Both the position numbers and the translations under genes were made by a program. The notes beneath the pieces are model-generated. The model was not told the DNA's origin. It was given only the letters and a program-made list of their open reading frames with translations, and searched no databases. Of a stretch of 42,873 bases of DNA, positions 22,090 to 35,835 are shown piece by piece. This stretch comes from a virus (Duplodnaviria; Heunggongvirae; Uroviricota; Caudoviricetes), in the IMG/VR virus record IMGVR_UViG_2897369580_000001; one strand, written 5' to 3'. Positions within the stretch are counted from its first letter, which is position 1. Every line of letters begins with the position of its first letter.

Positions 22090-22382
22090 CAGATAAACTC
22101 CTCATCGCGCCAGATAGCCAGTGTTCTGAAAACTCCCTCAGCGTGCATCAACAACAATGAGTCGTGCTCGTAATCCGTTTTTGTACGTCCGTCGATGGCA
22201 TCGTGACACGCACTGCAGGCGATAGCGCCCTGCATATCGTGAGGTTTGATGGCTGTGCCGCACGTTCCGGCGAGACGATAATGAGCCAGTACGCTGGTTT
22301 CAGGATTGTGATTGCACACACCGGGGATACGCACAGTACAAGCGCGACTGCGTGCAGCTTTTCTCAGGTCGATTTTTTTCAT
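22089..22382 (-). CDS. DUF1364 family protein (YbcO-like, Cys-rich putative nuclease)
   Basis: 97 aa; ...LRKAARSRACTVRIPGVCNHNPETSVLAHYRL...ACSACHD... resembles DLP12 YbcO. Confidence 0.6.
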   Translation of the reverse strand: MKKIDLRKAARSRACTVRIPGVCNHNPETSVLAHYRLAGTCGTAIKPHDMQGAIACSACHDAIDGRTKTDYEHDSLLLMHAEGVFRTLAIWRDEEFI

Positions 22383-22975
22383 GATGTGTAATCCAGCAGC
22401 TGCGCGGCGGCATTTTCAGCGGCCTCCTGAGAGGCAAATGTGCGGAACAAAATATAATTCCACAGCACATCTAAAACGGCTGAATACAGTTGACCGAACT
22501 CAAGATCGTCCATCGCTGCAAACGAGATTGAACGAGGTACGCGCATCAAACTGCCGTCTGGCATCTGATGAACGTCATAAAACCCAGCTTCCATAATCGC
22601 CCATGCGCGAAACGCCTCGAACGACTTCACCGCACTGATACTCCCCGCGCGCTTTTCCGACTCATCGAGAAGATACTGATCAGCCAGCTCTGCCATGACA
22701 TCACCGTGTCCACCGTAATACGCCAGTAACTTAACGTAGCCGTGAACCAGTTCGCGCTCCGCAGGAGAAATAGCCCCTCCGGACGGATGCCAGTAATCAA
22801 AGCCCAGGTTGAGAAGTGAGAAAAATTTACGATGAAACGCGGGATTACGCGCCTGTTTGAAATCTGCATACACAACAGCACCTGGTTTGACTCGTTCAGT
22901 CAACCAGCGTTGCGTGTCTGGTGTCGCGGGTATTAGCGAACCGCCGGATACCCTGATAAATGAATGCTGCGCCAT
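22379..22975 (-). CDS. DUF1367 family protein (YbcN-like), nin-region protein
   Basis: 198 aa; position upstream of the YbcO-like gene as in DLP12; family call from memory. Confidence 0.45.
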   Translation of the reverse strand: MAQHSFIRVSGGSLIPATPDTQRWLTERVKPGAVVYADFKQARNPAFHRKFFSLLNLGFDYWHPSGGAISPAERELVHGYVKLLAYYGGHGDVMAELADQYLLDESEKRAGSISAVKSFEAFRAWAIMEAGFYDVHQMPDGSLMRVPRSISFAAMDDLEFGQLYSAVLDVLWNYILFRTFASQEAAENAAAQLLDYTS

Positions 22976-23052
22976 GGTTAACTCCAGGTGGCGCGGCAGT
23001 GTTCAGAAAATGATGCCGGGTGTTCAATCCAGCACCGATATTATACCGTGTT

Positions 23053-23232
23053 TTACGCGTCAGGGGGTGTAATAGTATATCCAGCTATTTCTGCCAACTC
23101 GAGAAACGCCATCAGGCTGGCAATCCGCTCATCATCGGTCAGAACACGCACACCAACGATGTGTCCGTCCTTACGCTTGATAACAGCCCGGCATGTTTCC
23201 GGTAGTTCGCCTATAGATTCTTGAATATTCAT
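23053..23232 (-). CDS. Small protein under a LexA-box promoter (SOS-inducible; antirepressor candidate)
   Basis: 59 aa from ATG at 23232 with GGGGGGAAG RBS; promoter and LexA box directly upstream. Confidence 0.5.
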   Translation of the reverse strand: MNIQESIGELPETCRAVIKRKDGHIVGVRVLTDDERIASLMAFLELAEIAGYTITPPDA

Positions 23233-23254
23233 GTCTTCCCCCCAATGCCACAAC

Positions 23255-23270
23255 CTGTATATTTATACAG
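23255..23270. promoter_or_regulatory. LexA (SOS) box overlapping a sigma70-like promoter
   Basis: CTGTATATTTATACAG fits CTGT-N8-ACAG with AT-rich spacer; on minus strand -35 ATGACA, 17-nt spacer, -10 TATAAA inside the box. Confidence 0.7.
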
Positions 23271-23383
23271 TATTTTATGGCATTTGTCATAACGCCAAAT
23301 ACAATGAGGGAATAATGAACAATTATATTCACGTCGTGAATTTTATTAAACGGTTTTATAGGGGATTAAACCGTTTATGGTCA

Positions 23384-24025
23384 TTATTTATCACTCCTGT
23401 AAATTGGAATTAACCATTTTCTAATCGTCGACGCTGCAGGTGGGTCAGAGTATTTCGCCACAAAAATACCGGATATGTATTGCACGCCACGCGATAATGG
23501 CGCTGTCGGGTTTTCAGTAAAAAAACGATCAGCCAGTTCAATGGCTTCGCTTTTTAATCTGTGCTGTGGTCGTCCTCCGCCCTTTGTTCCCAGGTATCGC
23601 GCCAGTTGTTTGAAACGGTAGGCGATGATTAACGGTCGCATCATCATATTGAAAAAATCGCGGGCATCGTTGTCAGCGCCTTGCGCTATCAACAGTGCAA
23701 AAAACAGATACGGGATTATGTACACTTCAGGAGATATACGAACCCGTTCACAAGTTGGTGGAGCCAACTCAATAAGTAAGTCAGCCAGCGGATTCCCCTT
23801 TTCTCCACGTTTGTAATAGCGATACAGCGGCCCGATATCAAGTTCACTCACGTCGATTTCAGGATGCCCGGCAACGACTGTACGTATCTCTTCTGCCAGA
23901 GCGTCAAATATTGCCCCGGTCCGTTCAAGATAGAGCCTCCGGGTCGAACCGCGATCATCCAACGCCCGTAACATATCTAACCGGCTAACGAAAGTTTCAG
24001 GCCAGTCCTCATAGAAGGTTTTCAT
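23384..24025 (-). CDS. Hypothetical protein (accessory gene)
   Basis: ATG at 24025 with GAGGT RBS; 213 aa; no family recognised. Confidence 0.55.
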   Translation of the reverse strand: MKTFYEDWPETFVSRLDMLRALDDRGSTRRLYLERTGAIFDALAEEIRTVVAGHPEIDVSELDIGPLYRYYKRGEKGNPLADLLIELAPPTCERVRISPEVYIIPYLFFALLIAQGADNDARDFFNMMMRPLIIAYRFKQLARYLGTKGGGRPQHRLKSEAIELADRFFTENPTAPLSRGVQYISGIFVAKYSDPPAASTIRKWLIPIYRSDK

Positions 24026-24268
24026 AATTACCTCGAATAATAAAAACTGCACTATTTGCACAATTTATTATTCGTTTTCACGCCGCTGAGTTCTATAAAA
24101 AAGAAAAAACCTCCGAGGCAGGGTTTTGTTATGGCTCGTTAAATCATCATCCAACTTTTTAGACTGAACGGTGATACTTGCAAATATTTGAAAATATGGG
24201 CTGGAACCCTATCTTATGATGTGCCTGGTAATTTATATTGTTGGGTCTTTATATCATGAGGAATCACT

Positions 24269-24502
24269 ATGGGTACGTTAGGCAACCAGCCGTGCAGAAG
24301 TCGTTATGAGTTCGATGATTTTAATTTAGCCAATCGAGCTGCGGCTCTTACTAAGTTAGCAAAAGAAACTGGTGTATCGGTGGATACCTTAATCAAACTT
24401 GAAATTGCTATGCAACTGAATCGGCTCAACTCCATCCTTATCGAAAACGGTGACAAGATGGACGAGAATCTGGCAGGTATTGGCGAGATACTGCAGAAGT
24501 GA
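24269..24502 (+). CDS. Small putative HTH DNA-binding protein
   Basis: 77 aa; GAGGAA RBS; helix-turn-helix-like AALTKLAKETGVSVDTLIKLE; followed by terminator hairpin. Confidence 0.5.
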   Translation: MGTLGNQPCRSRYEFDDFNLANRAAALTKLAKETGVSVDTLIKLEIAMQLNRLNSILIENGDKMDENLAGIGEILQK

Positions 24503-24508
24503 GAGTAG

Positions 24509-24524
24509 CCCCTCTTCTGAGGGG
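24509..24524 (+). terminator. Intrinsic terminator-like hairpin
   Basis: CCCCTC-ttct-GAGGGG perfect stem, then TTGCACATTT. Confidence 0.45.
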
Positions 24525-24802
24525 TTGCACATTTAAAATATTAAGGGCGGTCTTCTTCACGTACACAGTCACCTGGTCGAATCGTTCACGCATACTGAGT
24601 ACAAAAAATCTCAACGATAAGATCAGGTTAGACCTGTATTTTCCAGAAACATATAGACGCCTAAAAAAACACTAAACTCATGATTATCATGTATGTTTTT
24701 ACTGGAAACATTGAACCATCCACAATACAGCGTAAAAAGCAAGCAATTCACAAGATTTTAAAGTGATTTATCTGGAAGACTTTACTACTAACAGTTAATA
24801 TC

Positions 24803-24845
24803 GTACCAGAAGTGCAGAATTTGCACTTTTACAGGAATGTGGTAC
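24803..24845. promoter_or_regulatory. Nested palindromes (operator candidate) upstream of ImmA-like gene
   Basis: GTACCA...AGTGCA-gaattt-TGCACT...TGGTAC about 60-100 bp upstream of the ATG at 24901. Confidence 0.4.
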
Positions 24846-24900
24846 GGAACATGCTGTCTATATTTCAACCAATAATCGTAATGCAGTAACTGGAGGAGCT

Positions 24901-25389
24901 ATGGCTACCAACCCAAGAGAGCACGCCCGGCGAGTGCTGGACACGTTCTGGTGCGGGCGTGGTTTCCCTGTTGATCCAGCGAAAATTGCTCACGACATGG
25001 GATTAGATGTTTTTATTACCGATCTTCCTGGGAAAGTTTCTGGCGCACTGATTAAACAAAAAGATCAAGATCCAGCGATCTTTCTAAACAGTGATGACAA
25101 CAAAGTTCGTCAACGTTTTTCATGTGGGCATGAGTTGGGGCATTACATCGCCCGGCAAGCATCGCATAGCGATGAATATGAGTACGTTGATTTACGTGGC
25201 GAAACCGCAAGCGCCGGAACGCATCCTGATGAAATTTTTGCAAACAAGTTCGCAGCAGAACTTCTGATGCCGGTAGATGAGGTCAGAAAACTGCACGCTG
25301 ACGGTCAACCAAGTTATATAATGGCGCATTATTTTGGCGTATCTGACGATGCGATGACTTATCGTTTAAAGAACTTGAGGTTGGGGTAA
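24901..25389 (+). CDS. ImmA/IrrE family metallo-endopeptidase (DUF955/COG2856-like)
   Basis: 162 aa; GGAGGAG RBS; HEXXH in ...SCGHELGHYIARQ... typical of ImmA/IrrE zinc peptidases. Confidence 0.8.
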   Translation: MATNPREHARRVLDTFWCGRGFPVDPAKIAHDMGLDVFITDLPGKVSGALIKQKDQDPAIFLNSDDNKVRQRFSCGHELGHYIARQASHSDEYEYVDLRGETASAGTHPDEIFANKFAAELLMPVDEVRKLHADGQPSYIMAHYFGVSDDAMTYRLKNLRLG

Positions 25390-25398
25390 CGCTTTAAA

Positions 25399-26004
25399 AT
25401 GCCATCGGATGACGATTTTAACAGCCGTTTCAAACAGGAAGTAGCACGCAGACTGAAGGATTCCCTCAACCTACACCGTCAGTTAGCAGAAGAGGTTGAG
25501 CCGGAGGACGATGAAACTCCGGTTCAGTCTCCTGACGAAGCTTCACCTCAGCCAAAGGTTTCGCACGCCCCCAAAAAAACGGCTGTCCGTATTCGCGGAA
25601 TAGCCAGAAAAAGAGCTGCCGAAGCTCGCAAAATGGCTGTAGCTGCGTCTAGCAAAAGAATTCCAACTGCTACACCCTCTCAACAAGTCACCCGTACTGA
25701 GAGTAAAATCTTGACCGAGTTCACATCTGTGAAACAGGTGAATTCACTTGATACCGAGCATGAGCGCAAACAACTCAACAACAAAGATTTTGAAGCAGAA
25801 ATCGCTCTAAAAAAACGATACGGGAAATGGTTCCTGATTATCCTTGCTTTCCAACTTCTGATAATGAATGGTGTATTTATTGCCGACGGCGCAGGTAAGC
25901 TGGAATTTGAGGATTTAACACTACAGTTGTACATGGGCGGTACTTTGACAGAGGTATTCGGCCTCGTGCTGGTCGTGACAAAATACCTTTTTAAACGCAA
26001 GTAA
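25399..26004 (+). CDS. Membrane protein with charged N-terminal region and two C-terminal TM helices (putative effector)
   Basis: 201 aa; starts 9 bp after peptidase stop; C-terminal hydrophobic helices; last 72 bp duplicated at 29355..29426. Confidence 0.65.
   Translation: MPSDDDFNSRFKQEVARRLKDSLNLHRQLAEEVEPEDDETPVQSPDEASPQPKVSHAPKKTAVRIRGIARKRAAEARKMAVAASSKRIPTATPSQQVTRTESKILTEFTSVKQVNSLDTEHERKQLNNKDFEAEIALKKRYGKWFLIILAFQLLIMNGVFIADGAGKLEFEDLTLQLYMGGTLTEVFGLVLVVTKYLFKRK
25933..26004 (+). repeat. Direct repeat copy 1 (3' end of membrane-protein gene)
   Basis: 72 bp, about 90% identical to 29355..29426; encodes MGGTLTEVFGLVLVVTKYLFKRK*. Confidence 0.9.
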
Positions 26005-26028
26005 CTCTCTCGGTCCAACAGTCTTTCG

Positions 26029-26050
26029 AAGGCCCTGATCAAAGGGCCTT
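26029..26050 (+). terminator. Terminator-like hairpin after membrane-protein gene
   Basis: AAGGCCCT-gatcaa-AGGGCCTT. Confidence 0.45.
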
Positions 26051-26248
26051 GATAAATTAGCAGTGCGTTGAAAACAGATAGTTATTCCCATCAGTTCCAA
26101 CGTAATACACATCAAAAAAATCACCATTCTTTTGCTCTAACGTCAACACCTACCCTTAAAAAAATAATTCTCCAAGAATGAGAAAGTTATTGTGTGTATT
26201 AGATAAGATATGAGCTGACACATCTATGGCGTGGAGCCAAATTTAATA

Positions 26249-26282
26249 TGACAGTCCGCTCTGTGCCATAAGCGGACTGTCA
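26249..26282. terminator. Perfect 12-bp inverted repeat hairpin between convergent genes
   Basis: TGACAGTCCGCT-ctgtgccata-AGCGGACTGTCA. Confidence 0.5.
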
Positions 26283-26466
26283 ATAAACAGATTCACTTGT
26301 AAATCTTGAAGCTATACATATTTACTTTCAATGATAAATAAAAGAACTATCCAAAAATCACTGAGAGCATATTTTAACTAACCCTCCGCTACTATTAACA
26401 TAAATTTCACCCAACCATAATTAAATTGATACATATAGCAACTTACCTTGATACGAATCATCTGGG

Positions 26467-27165
26467 TTATATTTTTCCATATTTTTTTCCGTCAAATCGA
26501 ATCATGCCAGGATCAAGAAAATTAATTAAATCGATTAACGCGTGCTGTATTCTGATTAGCCTTTCTTTATAAATTCCGATATCTCTTGTCATATTTATCA
26601 CTTCATTGTTTAAATCTAAAAAAAATGGCTCATTGATAAAGCAATTTTCCTTTGTGAAACTGCCGTAACCTATGCAATCAAATCCAGTATCTGTTGATAT
26701 CAGCATCTTTTCTGCAATAGCTCTCTGCTCTCCTATGAAAAACATAAAATACTGACCAAAGACGTCTGTTTGGATTAATGAGTTAATATTGTTCTGTAAT
26801 CTAATAAACTCCCTCATTTTTTTATTTTTTTCTAGGCTAAGGTATTGAATGTCTATGCGGGCAGCTTCTGTCCATGCAAAAAACTGGGAAAAAAGAAAAA
26901 CAGTATTGTTGATAACATAATCTTGTTGGCGCTTATTCCCATTATGATAAAACTCTTCAATGAACCCCAATTCTAATATATTATAAATACGGCTTTGTAA
27001 GTCTGAAGCTGAGCGAATTAACGGTTCAATATAGTACTGATGTTTTCTCCTTACATCCAGTGATTCATTGAGCTTGTTTATTCTATTCTGATTATAAGTA
27101 GATATAGCAATAGAGATTATAGCTATTGCACCACTAATAAAGCTTGAAATTAATGCCGTACCCAT
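26467..27165 (-). CDS. AT-rich membrane-anchored protein of unknown function (defense/exclusion candidate)
   Basis: 232 aa; N-terminal TM helix ALISSFISGAIAIISIAISTY; Asn/Ile/Lys-rich; sits in visibly AT-rich cassette. Confidence 0.6.
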   Translation of the reverse strand: MGTALISSFISGAIAIISIAISTYNQNRINKLNESLDVRRKHQYYIEPLIRSASDLQSRIYNILELGFIEEFYHNGNKRQQDYVINNTVFLFSQFFAWTEAARIDIQYLSLEKNKKMREFIRLQNNINSLIQTDVFGQYFMFFIGEQRAIAEKMLISTDTGFDCIGYGSFTKENCFINEPFFLDLNNEVINMTRDIGIYKERLIRIQHALIDLINFLDPGMIRFDGKKYGKI

Positions 27166-28352
27166 CTAAAAGTCCTTTGATTCTTGCTTGGTTAACAAAA
27201 TGACATAATTTTATTTAATGCCATAACAACTTAACAATATATCATAATATGATTATTATGGTGTAGCTTGTCGCATCTACGCTCCATTACAAACAGATGT
27301 AAGATATAACCTATATGTTTTAGCCAGCAAATTCGAAAGCATTCAAAGTAGTCTCATCGAACTCTCGAAACCCTATGTCTTCGGGTATAAAATATTTAAA
27401 TCCATTTGCATAATATCGACTCATGTTTATTATATTCTCCCCATTCACCATTAAGATTTGACATTATTTTCAACAATCGGTTATTGCAAGATTGAAATAT
27501 ATTTTTACTTGACACAATATTCCATGTAGCCCAGCGATTCGACTTACCCCCAACTATACGGACAATCTAAATTAAATCGATGATTTTTTGATACATTCTC
27601 CTCTCTCCATTACTTTATGTTTTTGTTCCCCAAAAATACCTTGCTCTCTAAAAAATAATTGTTCTTTAAGTTCAAAATCGAGATCTACATGAGCGTTAGA
27701 TACAAAGCTAATATGTTGAAATGTCTTTCCCCCCCCATAACGGCATTGTTATCTAAACTATGTTACACAAATATAATATTACCCTTTCAACGTAATCCAA
27801 GAATAAGATTAATGCCATTATATATATCATAAATATGATATTTTGTATATTTTTATCATTTAGCCTTGATTGTACTAGGTGTACTCTCAACGAAGTAGGG
27901 AAAGTCTGTTCCTCGCTCACAGCTGCCCTTCAGTAAGCGAAAAAATGCCTACTCGGTGCCATATACAGCCATTGTTATTAACAGCAGGGAATAATTCAAA
28001 ACTGAAATTAAATATCTACCTTTTACAGTAGAAATAGTTCCTCCAGGACACTATCCATTGCCGGGCACAATCACTCGGGGTATAACGATATAAAATATGT
28101 TCATGATAGTGCAGGTTCGTATATTAAGTTCAGCAGCGAAAACATGCCTTACAGGTTTCCGGTTTTGGGAGCGTCGTTACAGGATCCTGCGCATACCGTT
28201 CCCATCTGTTGAATTAAAGGTTTCACAGCCTTTGCCGATATCACCTTTTACCTTACCTGTGATGCGTTCAGTGCTCAGCGTTGTTTACTGTAGCTCTCGG
28301 GACTGATTACAGACCGCGTCTTAAAAACCAATCCTTACTCTAAAGGGAATTC

Positions 28353-29276
28353 ATGAGATTAAAATACTCAGTACTCTTACTCGCCATTGCCCTTACAGGC
28401 TGTGATAACAAAAAAGATGAGATCGGTTGTTCTTCGGAAATAACCCAGTCAGCTCTCATGGATTTATTAAAAAAATCTGCTTATGAAGGACTCTCTGAAC
28501 AGGTCGATAAATACCCTGATGTCACTAATCAGACCAAACGAAGCACACTGGACAAGATCAAACTAGCCATCTCTGAGATCTCCACAACATCAAGTGACAC
28601 GGGCAGCACAATGAAAACTTGTGAAGGGACCGTGACGATGACTCTATCTGCGAACGAGTACGTCCAGCTTTCAGATGCTTACAGAAAGAATTTTAATCGT
28701 AATCTCGATAAGCAAATGGAAAGCCTGTTTTTGGAGAACAACGCAAACGCCTTTTCAAAACGTATCACCTACACCGTGCAGGCGACCGACGATCAGAAAA
28801 ACGTTTTTGTAAAAACCTCTACTGATAATCCGATATCAGTGGGCGCCGCTTTACTGACATCGCTTTCCATTATCACCCCGATCGTTGAGCAGCAGAAAAT
28901 CCAGCAGGCTAAGGATGCCCAACAGAGTCAAATTGAAGCGGAACAACAGGTGCAACTCAGGGCGCAAGAACAGGCTAAGTATGAGGCGGAGAAGCAAATA
29001 GAGAGACAGGCACAACTTCAGCCGCAAAAAGCTGACAACCTTGATCAGTCCCGAATGGCATTTGCGAATGCCGACTCTGATTTGAGTACCGTCTGGAGCA
29101 AGTTAACCCCGGCGAAGAAAAAAGATTTGCTGCCTTCTCAGCGTCAGTGGATCAAAACTAAGGATGCTATGTGCGGTAAAGTTTCAATGCAGGGAACAGA
29201 TGCTGAAGTCAAGAAAATGGTCGACTGCCAGACGCAAATGACCCTTTCAAGAATCGCTTTCCTCAGAAACCAATAA
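28353..29276 (+). CDS. Lipoprotein with C-terminal DUF1311 (LprI-like) domain
   Basis: 307 aa; signal peptide with lipobox LTGC; Gln-rich coiled-coil middle; C-terminal ...QRQWIKTKDAMCG...DCQTQMTLSRIAFLRN two-Cys motif. Confidence 0.6.
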   Translation: MRLKYSVLLLAIALTGCDNKKDEIGCSSEITQSALMDLLKKSAYEGLSEQVDKYPDVTNQTKRSTLDKIKLAISEISTTSSDTGSTMKTCEGTVTMTLSANEYVQLSDAYRKNFNRNLDKQMESLFLENNANAFSKRITYTVQATDDQKNVFVKTSTDNPISVGAALLTSLSIITPIVEQQKIQQAKDAQQSQIEAEQQVQLRAQEQAKYEAEKQIERQAQLQPQKADNLDQSRMAFANADSDLSTVWSKLTPAKKKDLLPSQRQWIKTKDAMCGKVSMQGTDAEVKKMVDCQTQMTLSRIAFLRNQ

Positions 29277-29291
29277 CTGAAGTCTCCTTCA

Positions 29292-29323
29292 AGCTGGCGC
29301 CAGGTGTTAACCTGGTGCCAGCT
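29292..29323 (+). terminator. Terminator-like hairpin after lipoprotein gene
   Basis: AGCTGGCGCCAGG-tgttaa-CCTGGTGCCAGCT, 13-bp stem with 1 mismatch. Confidence 0.45.
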
Positions 29324-29354
29324 TAGTCATCAAGTGCATATGTAACTGTTTTAT

Positions 29355-29426
29355 ATGGGCGGTACTTTGACAGAGGTATTCGGTCTCGTGCTGGTCGTGG
29401 TCAAATACCTTTTTAAGCGCAAATAG
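29355..29426 (+). repeat. Direct repeat copy 2 (orphan 3' gene end; 23-codon ORF)
   Basis: About 90% identical to 25933..26004; preceded by in-frame stop; encodes MGGTLTEVFGLVLVVVKYLFKRK*. Confidence 0.9.
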
Positions 29427-29450
29427 AGTATTTCCGCCCCAAACAACCTG

Positions 29451-30269
29451 TCAAAATGCTGAATTAGCAACGGATATAGCCGACTTTTTCCCCATTACCA
29501 TCAATTTATCCAGTGTCATACTTCGCAGATTGTCGCTGTGGATCACCAGATACCCTGCCCGCTCAGCGATCTCTTTGAAAGCGTCAAAGGTCATCAGATG
29601 TTCGCCTTTGGCAACATGGCGCATCCCGGTCACTTTTCCATTTTTGATAGTGGTGATAAAAGAAAAATCTGGAATGGTTGGGTGATTTTCATCGAGTAGC
29701 AGGCAGTGGATGTATTCAATCGCCTCTAACATTTGCGTCTGTGACAGTTGTTCTATGTGAGAGACGGCGAAGCGTTGATGAATCATGGTGTAGGCATCGG
29801 GATACATCATGCCTTTCTTGCCGACCAGTATATTAACGGCATCACGCAAGGGAGTACGGTCATCGGTAGTTGTACTCCGCCTCTCTGGACGCTGGCTAAA
29901 ATAACAATCTTCCAGCTTTTCGAAAACTTCCCAGGCCTGTTCTGTTTCCAGCATTTTGGCATGGCGAGCTGCGCCGCGTTCTGTCCAGAGAATGAGGGAT
30001 CGGGTATGTTTAGCAACTGACTGACTATCTGTCAGTCTGTTTTTGAAGTCGCGTAATTCATTACCTTCCAGCTTAAAAAAATGCTTTCCTACGACAAATC
30101 TGGCGATGTTGCGCTTGAAGTTTTGCTGGATACCATTTACTTCCGTGCCATACAAACTGGCAAGCAATTCAGTAGTGATGACGGGAAGTTGGTTATGATG
30201 TAGCGGAGAAAGGGATTCCGCAGATATTTGGACTGTCATCGCAGTGGCCTCACTTAGTGTTTTTTTCAT
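29451..30269 (-). CDS. Phage antirepressor-like protein (ORF6N/Ant N-terminal-like domain)
   Basis: 272 aa from ATG at 30269; N-terminal ...LPVITTELLASLYGTEVNGIQQNFKRNIARFVVGKHFFKL... resembles Ant/ORF6N regions. Confidence 0.55.
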   Translation of the reverse strand: MKKTLSEATAMTVQISAESLSPLHHNQLPVITTELLASLYGTEVNGIQQNFKRNIARFVVGKHFFKLEGNELRDFKNRLTDSQSVAKHTRSLILWTERGAARHAKMLETEQAWEVFEKLEDCYFSQRPERRSTTTDDRTPLRDAVNILVGKKGMMYPDAYTMIHQRFAVSHIEQLSQTQMLEAIEYIHCLLLDENHPTIPDFSFITTIKNGKVTGMRHVAKGEHLMTFDAFKEIAERAGYLVIHSDNLRSMTLDKLMVMGKKSAISVANSAF

Positions 30270-30301
30270 CACCACCAGCGACGCCAATCATCTGGTGGTG
30301 A
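30269..30301. promoter_or_regulatory. 10-bp inverted repeat abutting antirepressor start codon
   Basis: TCACCACCAG-N13-CTGGTGGTGA; 3' arm contains the probable RBS. Confidence 0.4.
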
Positions 30302-35388: not shown

Positions 35389-35421
35389 GCTCCCTACAAT
35401 TAAACCTTGTATCCTTACGGT

Positions 35422-35835
35422 ATGAACACAAAAACGAAAAACATGGCTTTTGCTAGCCGACTACAACGGATTCTAAAAGACTTAGGCTGGTCTCAATCTG
35501 AGTTAGCTCGCCATATTGGGGTTACGGCTCAATCAGTTCAGGCATGGTGTAATGGGGTAACTCCAAGAAAAGATAAATTAGACAAGCTAGCAAAAGTGAC
35601 CGGATACCCTGTTCATTTTTTCTTCATGAATGAAGGGGAATATTTGGATGAATCCACACTACACCCGGGTAATTACAATCAAGAACTAACCCCGCAAGAA
35701 CAGGCTCTACTGCAACTATTCAGAGGACTGCCTGAGAGCGAAAAAAATAAATTAATCAATGAGCTAAAAGAAAAAAGAGAGCACTTCGATCTACTGCTAA
35801 AAGAACTACTTGAAGCCAAAAACCAGACAAAATAG
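35422..35835 (+). CDS. Prophage repressor, DicA-like (N-terminal XRE HTH, no S24 peptidase domain)
   Basis: N-terminal HTH SQSELARHIGVTAQSVQAWCNG; C-terminal ...LTPQEQALLQLFRGLPESEKNKL...LLKELLEAKNQTK resembles DicA C-terminus. Confidence 0.7.
   Translation: MNTKTKNMAFASRLQRILKDLGWSQSELARHIGVTAQSVQAWCNGVTPRKDKLDKLAKVTGYPVHFFFMNEGEYLDESTLHPGNYNQELTPQEQALLQLFRGLPESEKNKLINELKEKREHFDLLLKELLEAKNQTK

Follow-up and report, generated by a model that had tools for sequence, protein, structure and literature searches.

GtgR of the prophage Gifsy-2 belongs to a class of non-cleavable repressors, which are inactivated by small LexA-controlled antirepressors of the nin region (Lemire et al., 2011, PMC3121763), and antirepressors of the Gifsy type also work in trans on non-cognate repressors (PMC3121763). 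In the immI region of phage P22, the DNA-binding proteins Mnt and Arc of the phage are encoded beside the antirepressor gene and provide an extra lock through an operator over its promoter. In phage-inducible chromosomal islands (PICIs), AlpA is the activator that starts the cycle of the satellite. For the Gram-negative PICIs, no master repressor is known, nor is the helper-dependent route by which alpA becomes expressed (PMC6092414). Here, we describe gene X, a working name for a gene of 213 amino acids (aa) at positions 23384-24025 of the IMG/VR record IMGVR_UViG_2897369580_000001, a stretch of 42,873 nucleotides (nt) from a virus of the Caudoviricetes, which as a whole is called the window below. 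With a probability of about 0.4, as judged from sequence, X would be a sequence-specific DNA-binding regulator of a switch, probably a repressor, which has cognate paired sites and belongs to a family of regulators of mobile genetic elements. Our confidence in this proposal comes from comparative and structural inference; what can be read directly are the open reading frame (ORF), the synteny, the sites and their linkage to the gene, and, as features of the sequence, the promoters and the LexA box. The features concerned are as follows.

23384-24025, minus strand: gene X, 213-aa member of phrog_5215 (ORF reading, RefSeq coding sequence WP_000847617.1, phrog_5215 match, AlphaFold2 model, family alignments)
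24030-24034, minus strand: ribosome-binding site GAGGT, 4 nt 5' of the ATG of gene X (read from the sequence; homologous loci have GAGG or GGGG there)
23366-23378, no strand: site 1, a 13-bp palindrome ATAAAC-G-GTTTAA in the phage sense, 6 nt past the TAA stop codon of X
23346-23358, no strand: site 2, a second 13-bp copy, TAAAAC-C-GTTTAA, 20 bp from site 1, its T-arm overlapping the -35 of P1
23322-23349, minus strand: promoter P1, sigma-70-like, TTAATA-16-TATAAT with 10/12 matches, directed toward the antirepressor gene (promoter scan)
23255-23290, minus strand: P2, the SOS promoter, with -35 ATGACA (23285-23290), a 17-nt spacer and -10 TATAAA (23262-23267) within the LexA box CTGTATAAATATACAG
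23053-23232, minus strand: 59-aa ORF, candidate antirepressor of the GftA/GfoA type (phrog_340, E 6e-21; DUF1367 synteny)

How does this locus compare with the Gifsy prophages? The window is a lambdoid prophage whose phage sense is the minus strand. In this sense, a gene for a short helix-turn-helix (HTH) repressor (35407-35835), a cro-like gene, a YdaT/CII-like gene and replication genes including that of a DnaB-type helicase are followed by a variable block, which has genes for ORF6N, LprI and a 232-aa protein and then, on the opposite strand, for a 201-aa transmembrane (TM) protein, ImmA/IrrE and a 77-aa ORF. Gene X comes next, and after it a regulatory region of 130 nt, the 59-aa ORF, DUF1367 (22379-22975), DUF1364, Q, and the lysis and structural genes. 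The repressor is 33% identical to Gifsy-2 GtgR over the whole length (E 6e-23). The LexA box at 23255-23270, CTGTATATTTATACAG, is perfect; it is the sole CTGT-N8-ACAG in the window and lies 113 nt past the stop codon of X, and P2, to which it belongs, agrees in architecture with the LexA-controlled antirepressor operon of Gifsy (PMC3121763). The Klebsiella orthologue of the 59-aa ORF matches Gifsy-2 GftA (E 3e-7) as well as phrog_340 and phrog_4847, the latter being the GftA family, and gftA of Gifsy-2 is located directly upstream of the DUF1367 gene STM1020, a place equivalent to that of the 59-aa ORF in the window. Because of the GtgR-like repressor, the link between phrog_340 and GftA, and the DUF1367 synteny, we regard the LexA-controlled promoter as the SOS promoter of a Gifsy-type antirepressor; a GtgR-like repressor combined with such a switch predicts antirepressor-mediated induction of this widespread Escherichia coli prophage. 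Thus, the operon of Gifsy-1/-2/-3 (dinI-gftA/gfoA-irsA, PMC3121763) and the window have in common a GtgR-like repressor, an antirepressor gene directly upstream of DUF1367, and a LexA box over the -10 of a nin-region promoter. On the other hand, the Gifsy promoter is insulated by two GC-rich intrinsic terminators and its operon starts with dinI, while the window has no dinI and carries instead gene X, the paired palindromes and the extra promoter P1. Insertions at this switch were also seen in some E. coli genomes: in L116 (E. coli Ecol_AZ162, NZ_CP019015.1, 1715-3472), and also in H59 and H60, an ISEc53 (ISL3-like) element with a ClbS/DfsB gene separates X from the 59-aa ORF and interrupts the antirepressor promoter in its LexA box and -10. 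These insertions probably cripple SOS induction of the prophage.

The arrangement around X was compared among lambdoid loci, namely the window, L003 from Salmonella, L005 from Klebsiella, L018-L020 (69% identity), and the two deep lineages L026 (30%) and L111 (39%). In every lambdoid lineage examined, X is co-oriented with the early operon, and directly downstream of it come a LexA-box promoter and a small ORF, which belongs to phrog_340 in the close lineages and L026 and to phrog_10889 ("anti-repressor", E 7e-8) in L111. On its other side, X has different genes in each lineage: in the window this is an ImmA module and in Salmonella a DnaJ/NikA-like one, while Klebsiella has genes for pol III theta and an AcrIF11-like ADP-ribosyltransferase, and L026 has genes of the nin type. 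As X keeps its switch neighbour while the far-side genes change, it goes with the SOS-antirepressor switch rather than with the cargo. These comparisons bear on the original prediction, which had been made from the DNA letters of the window. Its statements that X is at the edge of an accessory island and immediately upstream of a LexA-controlled promoter are both right, since the genes at 24269-30287 on the far side (77-aa ORF, ImmA/IrrE, 201-aa TM protein, 232-aa protein, LprI and ORF6N) are replaced in related prophages and the LexA box is present at 23255-23270. The conservation across related prophages that it proposed to look at is also there, with X retained beside the SOS promoter in three deep lambdoid lineages. 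It had gone on to suggest a defence or host-modulating role from the position in a cargo hotspot, and here the comparative data point to a switch module instead: because X is fixed beside the SOS promoter and has its own conserved paired sites, it behaves as part of the regulatory module of the switch. Of its interpretation as a whole, therefore, the absence from curated families, the variable cargo at the border and the LexA neighbour have stood, and the step from hotspot to cargo has found no support.

The same gene is also found outside the lambdoid prophages. Distant homologues of X (~17-25% identity) are encoded in PICI-like satellites of other Enterobacterales, where all of the 10 loci examined have the order of P4-type int, X, AlpA, Bro-N or AntA, DUF4222, Ash or ORF6N, and DUF927 primase. 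The leader of satellite alpA, at ~7745-7800 in L022 and ~2305-2362 in L024, has a feature of its own, a nested hairpin whose stem includes the Shine-Dalgarno sequence; its outer stem covaries (CCCTGAC/GTCAGGG vs. CCTAAC/GTTAGG), and it is a candidate for translational or attenuation control of alpA. There are two outliers, L113 (1109-1291) and L115 (6766-6948), in which X with a degenerate GRP motif is followed by a conserved 60-aa helical ORF (phrog_8959). This pair of genes sits at the ends of the elements, beside smpB in one and after Mu-like tail genes in the other, and the paired palindromes are not evident in these two loci.

What is carried along with X is a pair of palindromes just behind its stop codon. 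In the 42.9-kb window a paired site of this type occurs once, after X. In all four close lineages, the AAAC-N-GTTT motif and the exact spacing of 20 bp are kept and the loop between the copies varies, and in L005 only the LexA box and the paired motif with its 20-bp spacing are shared, the rest of the intergenic region being unrelated. Family-wide, the element can be written as (AT)ATAAA(C/G)-N1-3-GTTTAT(AT) in two copies, and 13 of the 15 lineages, covering ~20-100% protein identity, have two copies of ATAAA(C/G)-N1-3-GTTTAT or of a looser variant past the X stop. Where the strict motif was scored, the first copy is 6-10 nt past the stop in all lineages but one. Most lineages have 18-29 bp between the copies and L111 has ~36 bp; the copies are direct in L102, L109 and the close lambdoids and inverted in L022-L024, L026 and L103. 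The strict motif has 16 matches in the 15 x 73 nt past the stops against 0.28 expected from the rest of the loci; its post hoc definition inflates any P-value, and still the enrichment is clear. When 2.9 million IMG/VR viral contigs were searched for AAACNGTTT-N11-AAACNGTTT, 75 stretches were found, of which 10, comprising all those in enterobacterial prophages, lie directly beside an X homologue, and the remaining 65 are spread over unrelated, mostly AT-rich contigs.

Are these palindromes just a terminator? Folding of the 65 nt of RNA past the stop gave significantly stable structures in the window (z -3.7) and three satellite loci (z -4.6 to -6.3), while the folds in L003, L005, L018/L020 and L026 are not stable in comparison with shuffled sequences (z +0.6 to -1.3). 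L102 and L109 have direct repeats of an 18-bp quasi-palindrome, and the GGGG cores of L102 are unable to pair with each other. A simple intrinsic terminator was rejected for the lambdoid lineages and L102/L109, and may apply to some of the satellites. Since sequence, copy number, spacing and offset are kept without kept pairing, the paired palindromes are taken as a putative protein-binding site, of which X would be the parsimonious binder because it is the sole constant neighbour. Two other identities were considered and discarded: binding by the prophage repressor, whose immunity operators TTRCAAA-N5-TTTGTAA are unrelated, and an integron attC-like site, for which the R''/R' consensus is unmet and IntI is not present. 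P1, the promoter overlapped by site 2, is conserved in L003 and L018, weakened in L020, where the -10 is TGTAAT, and absent in L005. Within the P1 spacer there is yet another palindrome, TTCAC-N3-GTGAA at 23328-23340, which is conserved in L018 and L020 and partly in L003 and L111, and suggests a further regulator of the antirepressor region.

If X binds these sites, some part of the protein should look like a DNA-binding module. The AlphaFold2 model, made with a shallow alignment, is all-helical, with a best pLDDT (predicted local distance difference test) of 81 and a range of 53 to 81 among five models. About residues 1-147 form an all-helical N-terminal domain, residues 149-153 are a GGGRP arm, and residues 154-205 make up three helices at the C-terminus. 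It is in the C-terminal part that the family has its conserved core, which reads G-x-x-G-G-R-P-x-H-x-x-K-x-E-A-L and is followed by three helices that end with P-x-x-x-T-I-x-x-W-L; in X, GGGRPQHRLK occupies residues 149-158. G151 does not vary among 41 aligned sequences, and G150, R152 and P153 are conserved to 90% or more. In pairwise comparisons, the N-terminal 145 residues are on average 18-19% identical and the C-terminus 33% family-wide, the latter rising to 57% among the satellite members. A fast-diverging N-terminus joined to a conserved C-terminus is the pattern expected of a sensor or partner-binding domain fused to a DNA-binding module. A GRP arm before a three-helix bundle is the layout of the DNA-binding domains of Hin, Tc3 and the paired type, and of AT-hooks, and X has a basic GRP arm directly N-terminal of its helical bundle, as is expected for an HTH of the Hin/resolvase or Tc3/mariner kind. 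The likeness to the Hin, Tc3, mariner and paired domains is a weak one of layout, with no significant match in sequence or by Foldseek; X differs from Hin and Tc3/mariner in having no recombinase or transposase catalytic domain, and from a canonical HTH in a loop between helices 2 and 3 (KYSDPPAA) that is longer than the canonical turn. The Pfam matches of the C-terminus, HTH_32, DUF4817, HTH_48 and HTH_Tnp_Tc3_2, are all sub-threshold. The C-terminus of X is taken as a candidate HTH-like DNA-binding module.

To which family does X belong? Over its full length, residues 1-213 of a 213-position profile, it matches phrog_5215, annotated as "unknown function", with E 1.1e-150, and all of the 41 aligned family members match this PHROG and no other. 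No family was found for X at E <=1 in Pfam and NCBIfam, where the 41 relatives gave noise-level matches only, no defence model at E <=1 in PADLOC-DB 2.0, and no match in a sequence search of PDB; with the 41 relatives or a profile of the C-terminal domain the results were noise, the best PDB matches being de novo designed helical repeats. Thus the earlier statement that X fits no family is correct for Pfam, NCBIfam, PADLOC and PDB sequences and has to be corrected for PHROG, and the structure search that had been proposed as a check, done with Foldseek against PDB and BFVD, was negative and gave no placement. Literature searches with the accession of X and with the PHROG identifier returned no results.

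The gene itself was described in the original prediction as a solid ORF with a GAGGT ribosome-binding site, and the sequence, the RefSeq coding sequence and the homologues all agree with this. The ATG start is at 24025-24023 on the minus strand. Read mechanically, the ORF is longer, reaching back to a GTG at 24061 and having 225 aa; the ATG is preferred because RefSeq annotates it and homologues keep it, and WP_000847617.1, labelled "hypothetical protein", is exactly 213 aa. Of 5426 complete E. coli genomes, 442 have DNA more than 95% identical to gene X, in each case as a single chromosomal copy, and a plasmid search gave zero matches. Among deposited phages one record, vB_EcoM-705R4, has an identical copy, beyond which tblastn against 50,697 phage records found nothing, and single-protein scans of viral contigs for P0015 and P0017 gave no matches. 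In species-representative genomes a single locus was found, a frameshifted copy of 96% identity in Escherichia whittamii (L008, 6001-6638), whose translation ends after 111 aa and which is probably a pseudogene. Homologues with 60-72% identity are present in Klebsiella and Salmonella. Among 5.8 billion proteins, a word-indexed search picked up 14 relatives, confined to Enterobacteriaceae, and an exhaustive profile search of 1.84 billion representative proteins found 54 family representatives at the 50% identity level; the family is small. The occurrence in E. coli, the homologues in Klebsiella and Salmonella and the 54 representatives make gene X more than a chance ORF, and it is a real, conserved and previously uncharacterised gene.

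How might X work? From the comparisons above we infer, as follows, that X would bind DNA, in which direction it would regulate and what its biological role would be. The fast-evolving N-terminal helical domain would serve for dimerisation and/or as a sensor, and the C-terminal GRP minor-groove arm together with the three-helix HTH would bind the two AT-armed palindromes past the stop codon of X. Transcription from P1 would run through P2 into the antirepressor gene and on to the ninB-like genes and Q. Because P1 is so near to consensus, it would need a repressor for stable lysogeny, and X is proposed to be this repressor because the centre of the site is near -37, on the -35 hexamer, a position typical of occlusion. 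X on site 2 would then repress P1 and leave the antirepressor under LexA control alone, so that the antirepressor, which would inactivate the non-cleavable GtgR-like repressor, may be made solely upon LexA cleavage. X would be a second lock on the induction switch, giving a secondary immunity as Mnt/Arc do at Pant of P22. It may also silence in trans the antirepressor promoter of incoming related phages, which would matter because Gifsy-type antirepressors act on non-cognate repressors (PMC3121763). In the satellites, the same cassette between int and alpA would gate the alpA promoter.

X is likened to Mnt and Arc in its proposed working, not in family membership. Mnt and Arc are small ribbon-helix-helix proteins, while X is an all-helical protein of 213 aa with a C-terminal HTH-like module; no N-terminal beta-strand is seen in the all-alpha model, and a match to RHH_1 with E 0.18 in one distant member is noise. 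Moreover, ant of P22 is not controlled by LexA, unlike the antirepressor gene of the window with its LexA-box promoter. The comparison with Stl (Rpr), the master repressor of Gram-positive satellites (SaPI/PICI), has similar limits. Both Stl and X have a conserved DNA-binding module and a fast-diverging second domain, and the gene of Stl, like X in the int-X-alpA satellites, is next to int and ahead of those genes with which the satellite cycle starts. However, Stl has an N-terminal XRE-type HTH and is divergent from its target, while X has its HTH-like module in the C-terminus and is co-oriented with the antirepressor gene or alpA. There is no sequence or fold similarity between X and Stl, and no match to HTH_3 in X or the 41 relatives.

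One observation is a caveat to the binding of the sites by X: lineages that have the same third helix carry different GC cores (GGGG, CCGG or GCCGG). Since the cores differ in spite of the same helix, X would have to recognise chiefly the AT arms, as a minor-groove arm of the GRP type might do. It might also be that X is an autonomous moron for defence, superinfection exclusion or host modulation, expressed from its own promoter, with the palindromes being a terminator or insulator and the SOS neighbour a favoured recombination junction. We hold this to be possible and rather doubtful, and such a cargo gene to be less likely than a switch regulator. X does border the variable cargo island, a terminator-like hairpin and a promoter-like block upstream of it suggest an independent unit, and in the window and in satellite loci there are strong hairpins behind the stop codon. 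In L113 and L115, X is at the element ends beside host genes, the classic position of morons, Gram-negative PICIs are known to have an accessory hotspot behind int, and Gifsy-2 has, between the replication genes and the LexA box, other genes and terminators in the slot without X. Against it stands the constancy of the other side: an SOS-antirepressor or alpA neighbour stays across 20-100% identity while the cargo changes, and the motif, its copy number and its distance from the stop codon are kept where hairpin stability is not. In addition, the directly repeated copies in L102 cannot form a terminator stem between them, and no PADLOC model matches X.

Then, is the sign of regulation right? 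Activation instead of repression is a serious alternative, even if an unlikely one in our estimation: X would bind the paired sites and activate or antiterminate transcription of the switch gene, as lambda Q does at pR' and as AlpA-type activators do. The order of gene, sites and promoter is that of Q/pR', and activators can straddle a -35 element, as lambda CII does. The satellites have no visible strong constitutive promoter between the sites and alpA, whose expression needs activation by an unidentified helper-dependent route (PMC6092414). On the side of the antirepressor the evidence goes against it, because in the window and in L003 and L018 the -10 of the overlapped promoter is the consensus and its -35 matches at 4/6, so that no activator would be needed, L020 with its weakened -10 TGTAAT being the exception. 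The site centre at about -37 on the -35 hexamer is what is typical of occlusion, and a constitutive activator of the antirepressor gene would destabilise lysogeny. Less likely still is that X and the palindromes serve some other DNA transaction, such as cassette mobility or recombination, recombination directionality, or a replication or packaging site. This idea draws on the weak structural and Pfam hints to a transposase-type HTH (Mos1, SETMAR, Tc3, HTH_32), on the travelling of gene and sites as a cassette among lambdoid phages, satellites and other elements, and on the position of X next to int in the satellites. But X has no catalytic domain, the repeats are on its 3' side only without a matching upstream copy, X is far from int and the attachment site att in the lambdoid prophages, and functions of replication and packaging are encoded elsewhere in the window.

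The regulatory proposal can be extended from the lambdoid prophages to the satellites. It is conceivable, though improbable in our judgment, that phrog_5215 with its paired 3' palindromes is a portable "switch-guard" cassette, that is, the missing master repressor and sensor of a class of PICI-like satellites in Gram-negative bacteria, which Gifsy-type prophages have also recruited. If so, alpA would be held off until a product of the helper phage engages the hypervariable N-terminal domain, as is the case with Stl, and recruitment by lambdoid phages would add a second, possibly phage-sensing, input to the SOS-controlled expression of the antirepressor.

Upstream of gene X, two more features may contribute to its own expression.

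24034-24074, no strand: long palindrome CGAATAATAAA..TGCA-N5-TGCA..TTTATTATTCG over a putative -10 (AATAAT) and the 5' untranslated region (5'UTR) of X (inverted repeat I2; RNA fold)
24097-24127, minus strand: terminator-like hairpin with U-run upstream of X (RNA fold; the hairpin was not called by the consensus scan)

The palindrome, a candidate for either an operator or a 5'UTR hairpin, is in a block that is partly conserved 5' of the homologues. At the place equivalent to the hairpin, Klebsiella L005 has a canonical terminator, and tentatively the hairpin would make X a separate transcription unit. An Rfam scan of 22800-25100 gave no matches. Beyond them, an opposite-strand module at 24269-26004 (plus strand) consists of the 77-aa ORF (phrog_5550), a gap of 400 nt with no convincing ORF and no Rfam match, the ImmA/IrrE metallopeptidase (PADLOC capP, 2e-25), and the 201-aa protein, which has a C-terminal hydrophobic segment (phrog_5346). 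An XRE-type partner repressor is not evident in this module, and its 77-aa member has no significant HTH match. A palindrome TGCA-N5-TGCAC is present twice, upstream of ImmA (24812-24826) and in the leader of X (24048-24061), which hints at a common regulator of the ImmA gene and X. The possibility that X is the effector of a CapH/CapP- or ImmR/ImmA-type unit with the ImmA gene, 0.9 kb away on the other strand, was rejected; since no ImmA gene lies near the homologues of X in Salmonella, Klebsiella, L026 and L111, X is not tied to the ImmA/CapP-like protease. Farther away, at 26467-27165 on the minus strand, the cargo block encodes the 232-aa protein (phrog_5606), which is hydrophobic in a segment of its N-terminus and weakly matches RTasTM of PADLOC (E 1.8e-5). 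RTasTM is the TM partner of the DRT system, and the 232-aa protein is a possible stand-alone candidate for defence or abortive infection.

What, then, would X mean for the prophages that carry it? Antirepressor-based induction is widespread among prophages of E. coli and Salmonella, and what keeps the antirepressor promoter silent, apart from LexA, is not known. With its own sites at both switch promoters, that of the antirepressor and that of alpA, X is a concrete candidate for such a regulator, and X is found in an ST131 prophage that ~8% of complete E. coli genomes carry. Even if X turns out to be ordinary cargo, a false lead to a defence gene will have been removed and a well-defined cassette of protein and sites documented. 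If, on the other hand, phrog_5215 is really the missing repressor and sensor of a class of Gram-negative satellites, the finding would be of greater interest.

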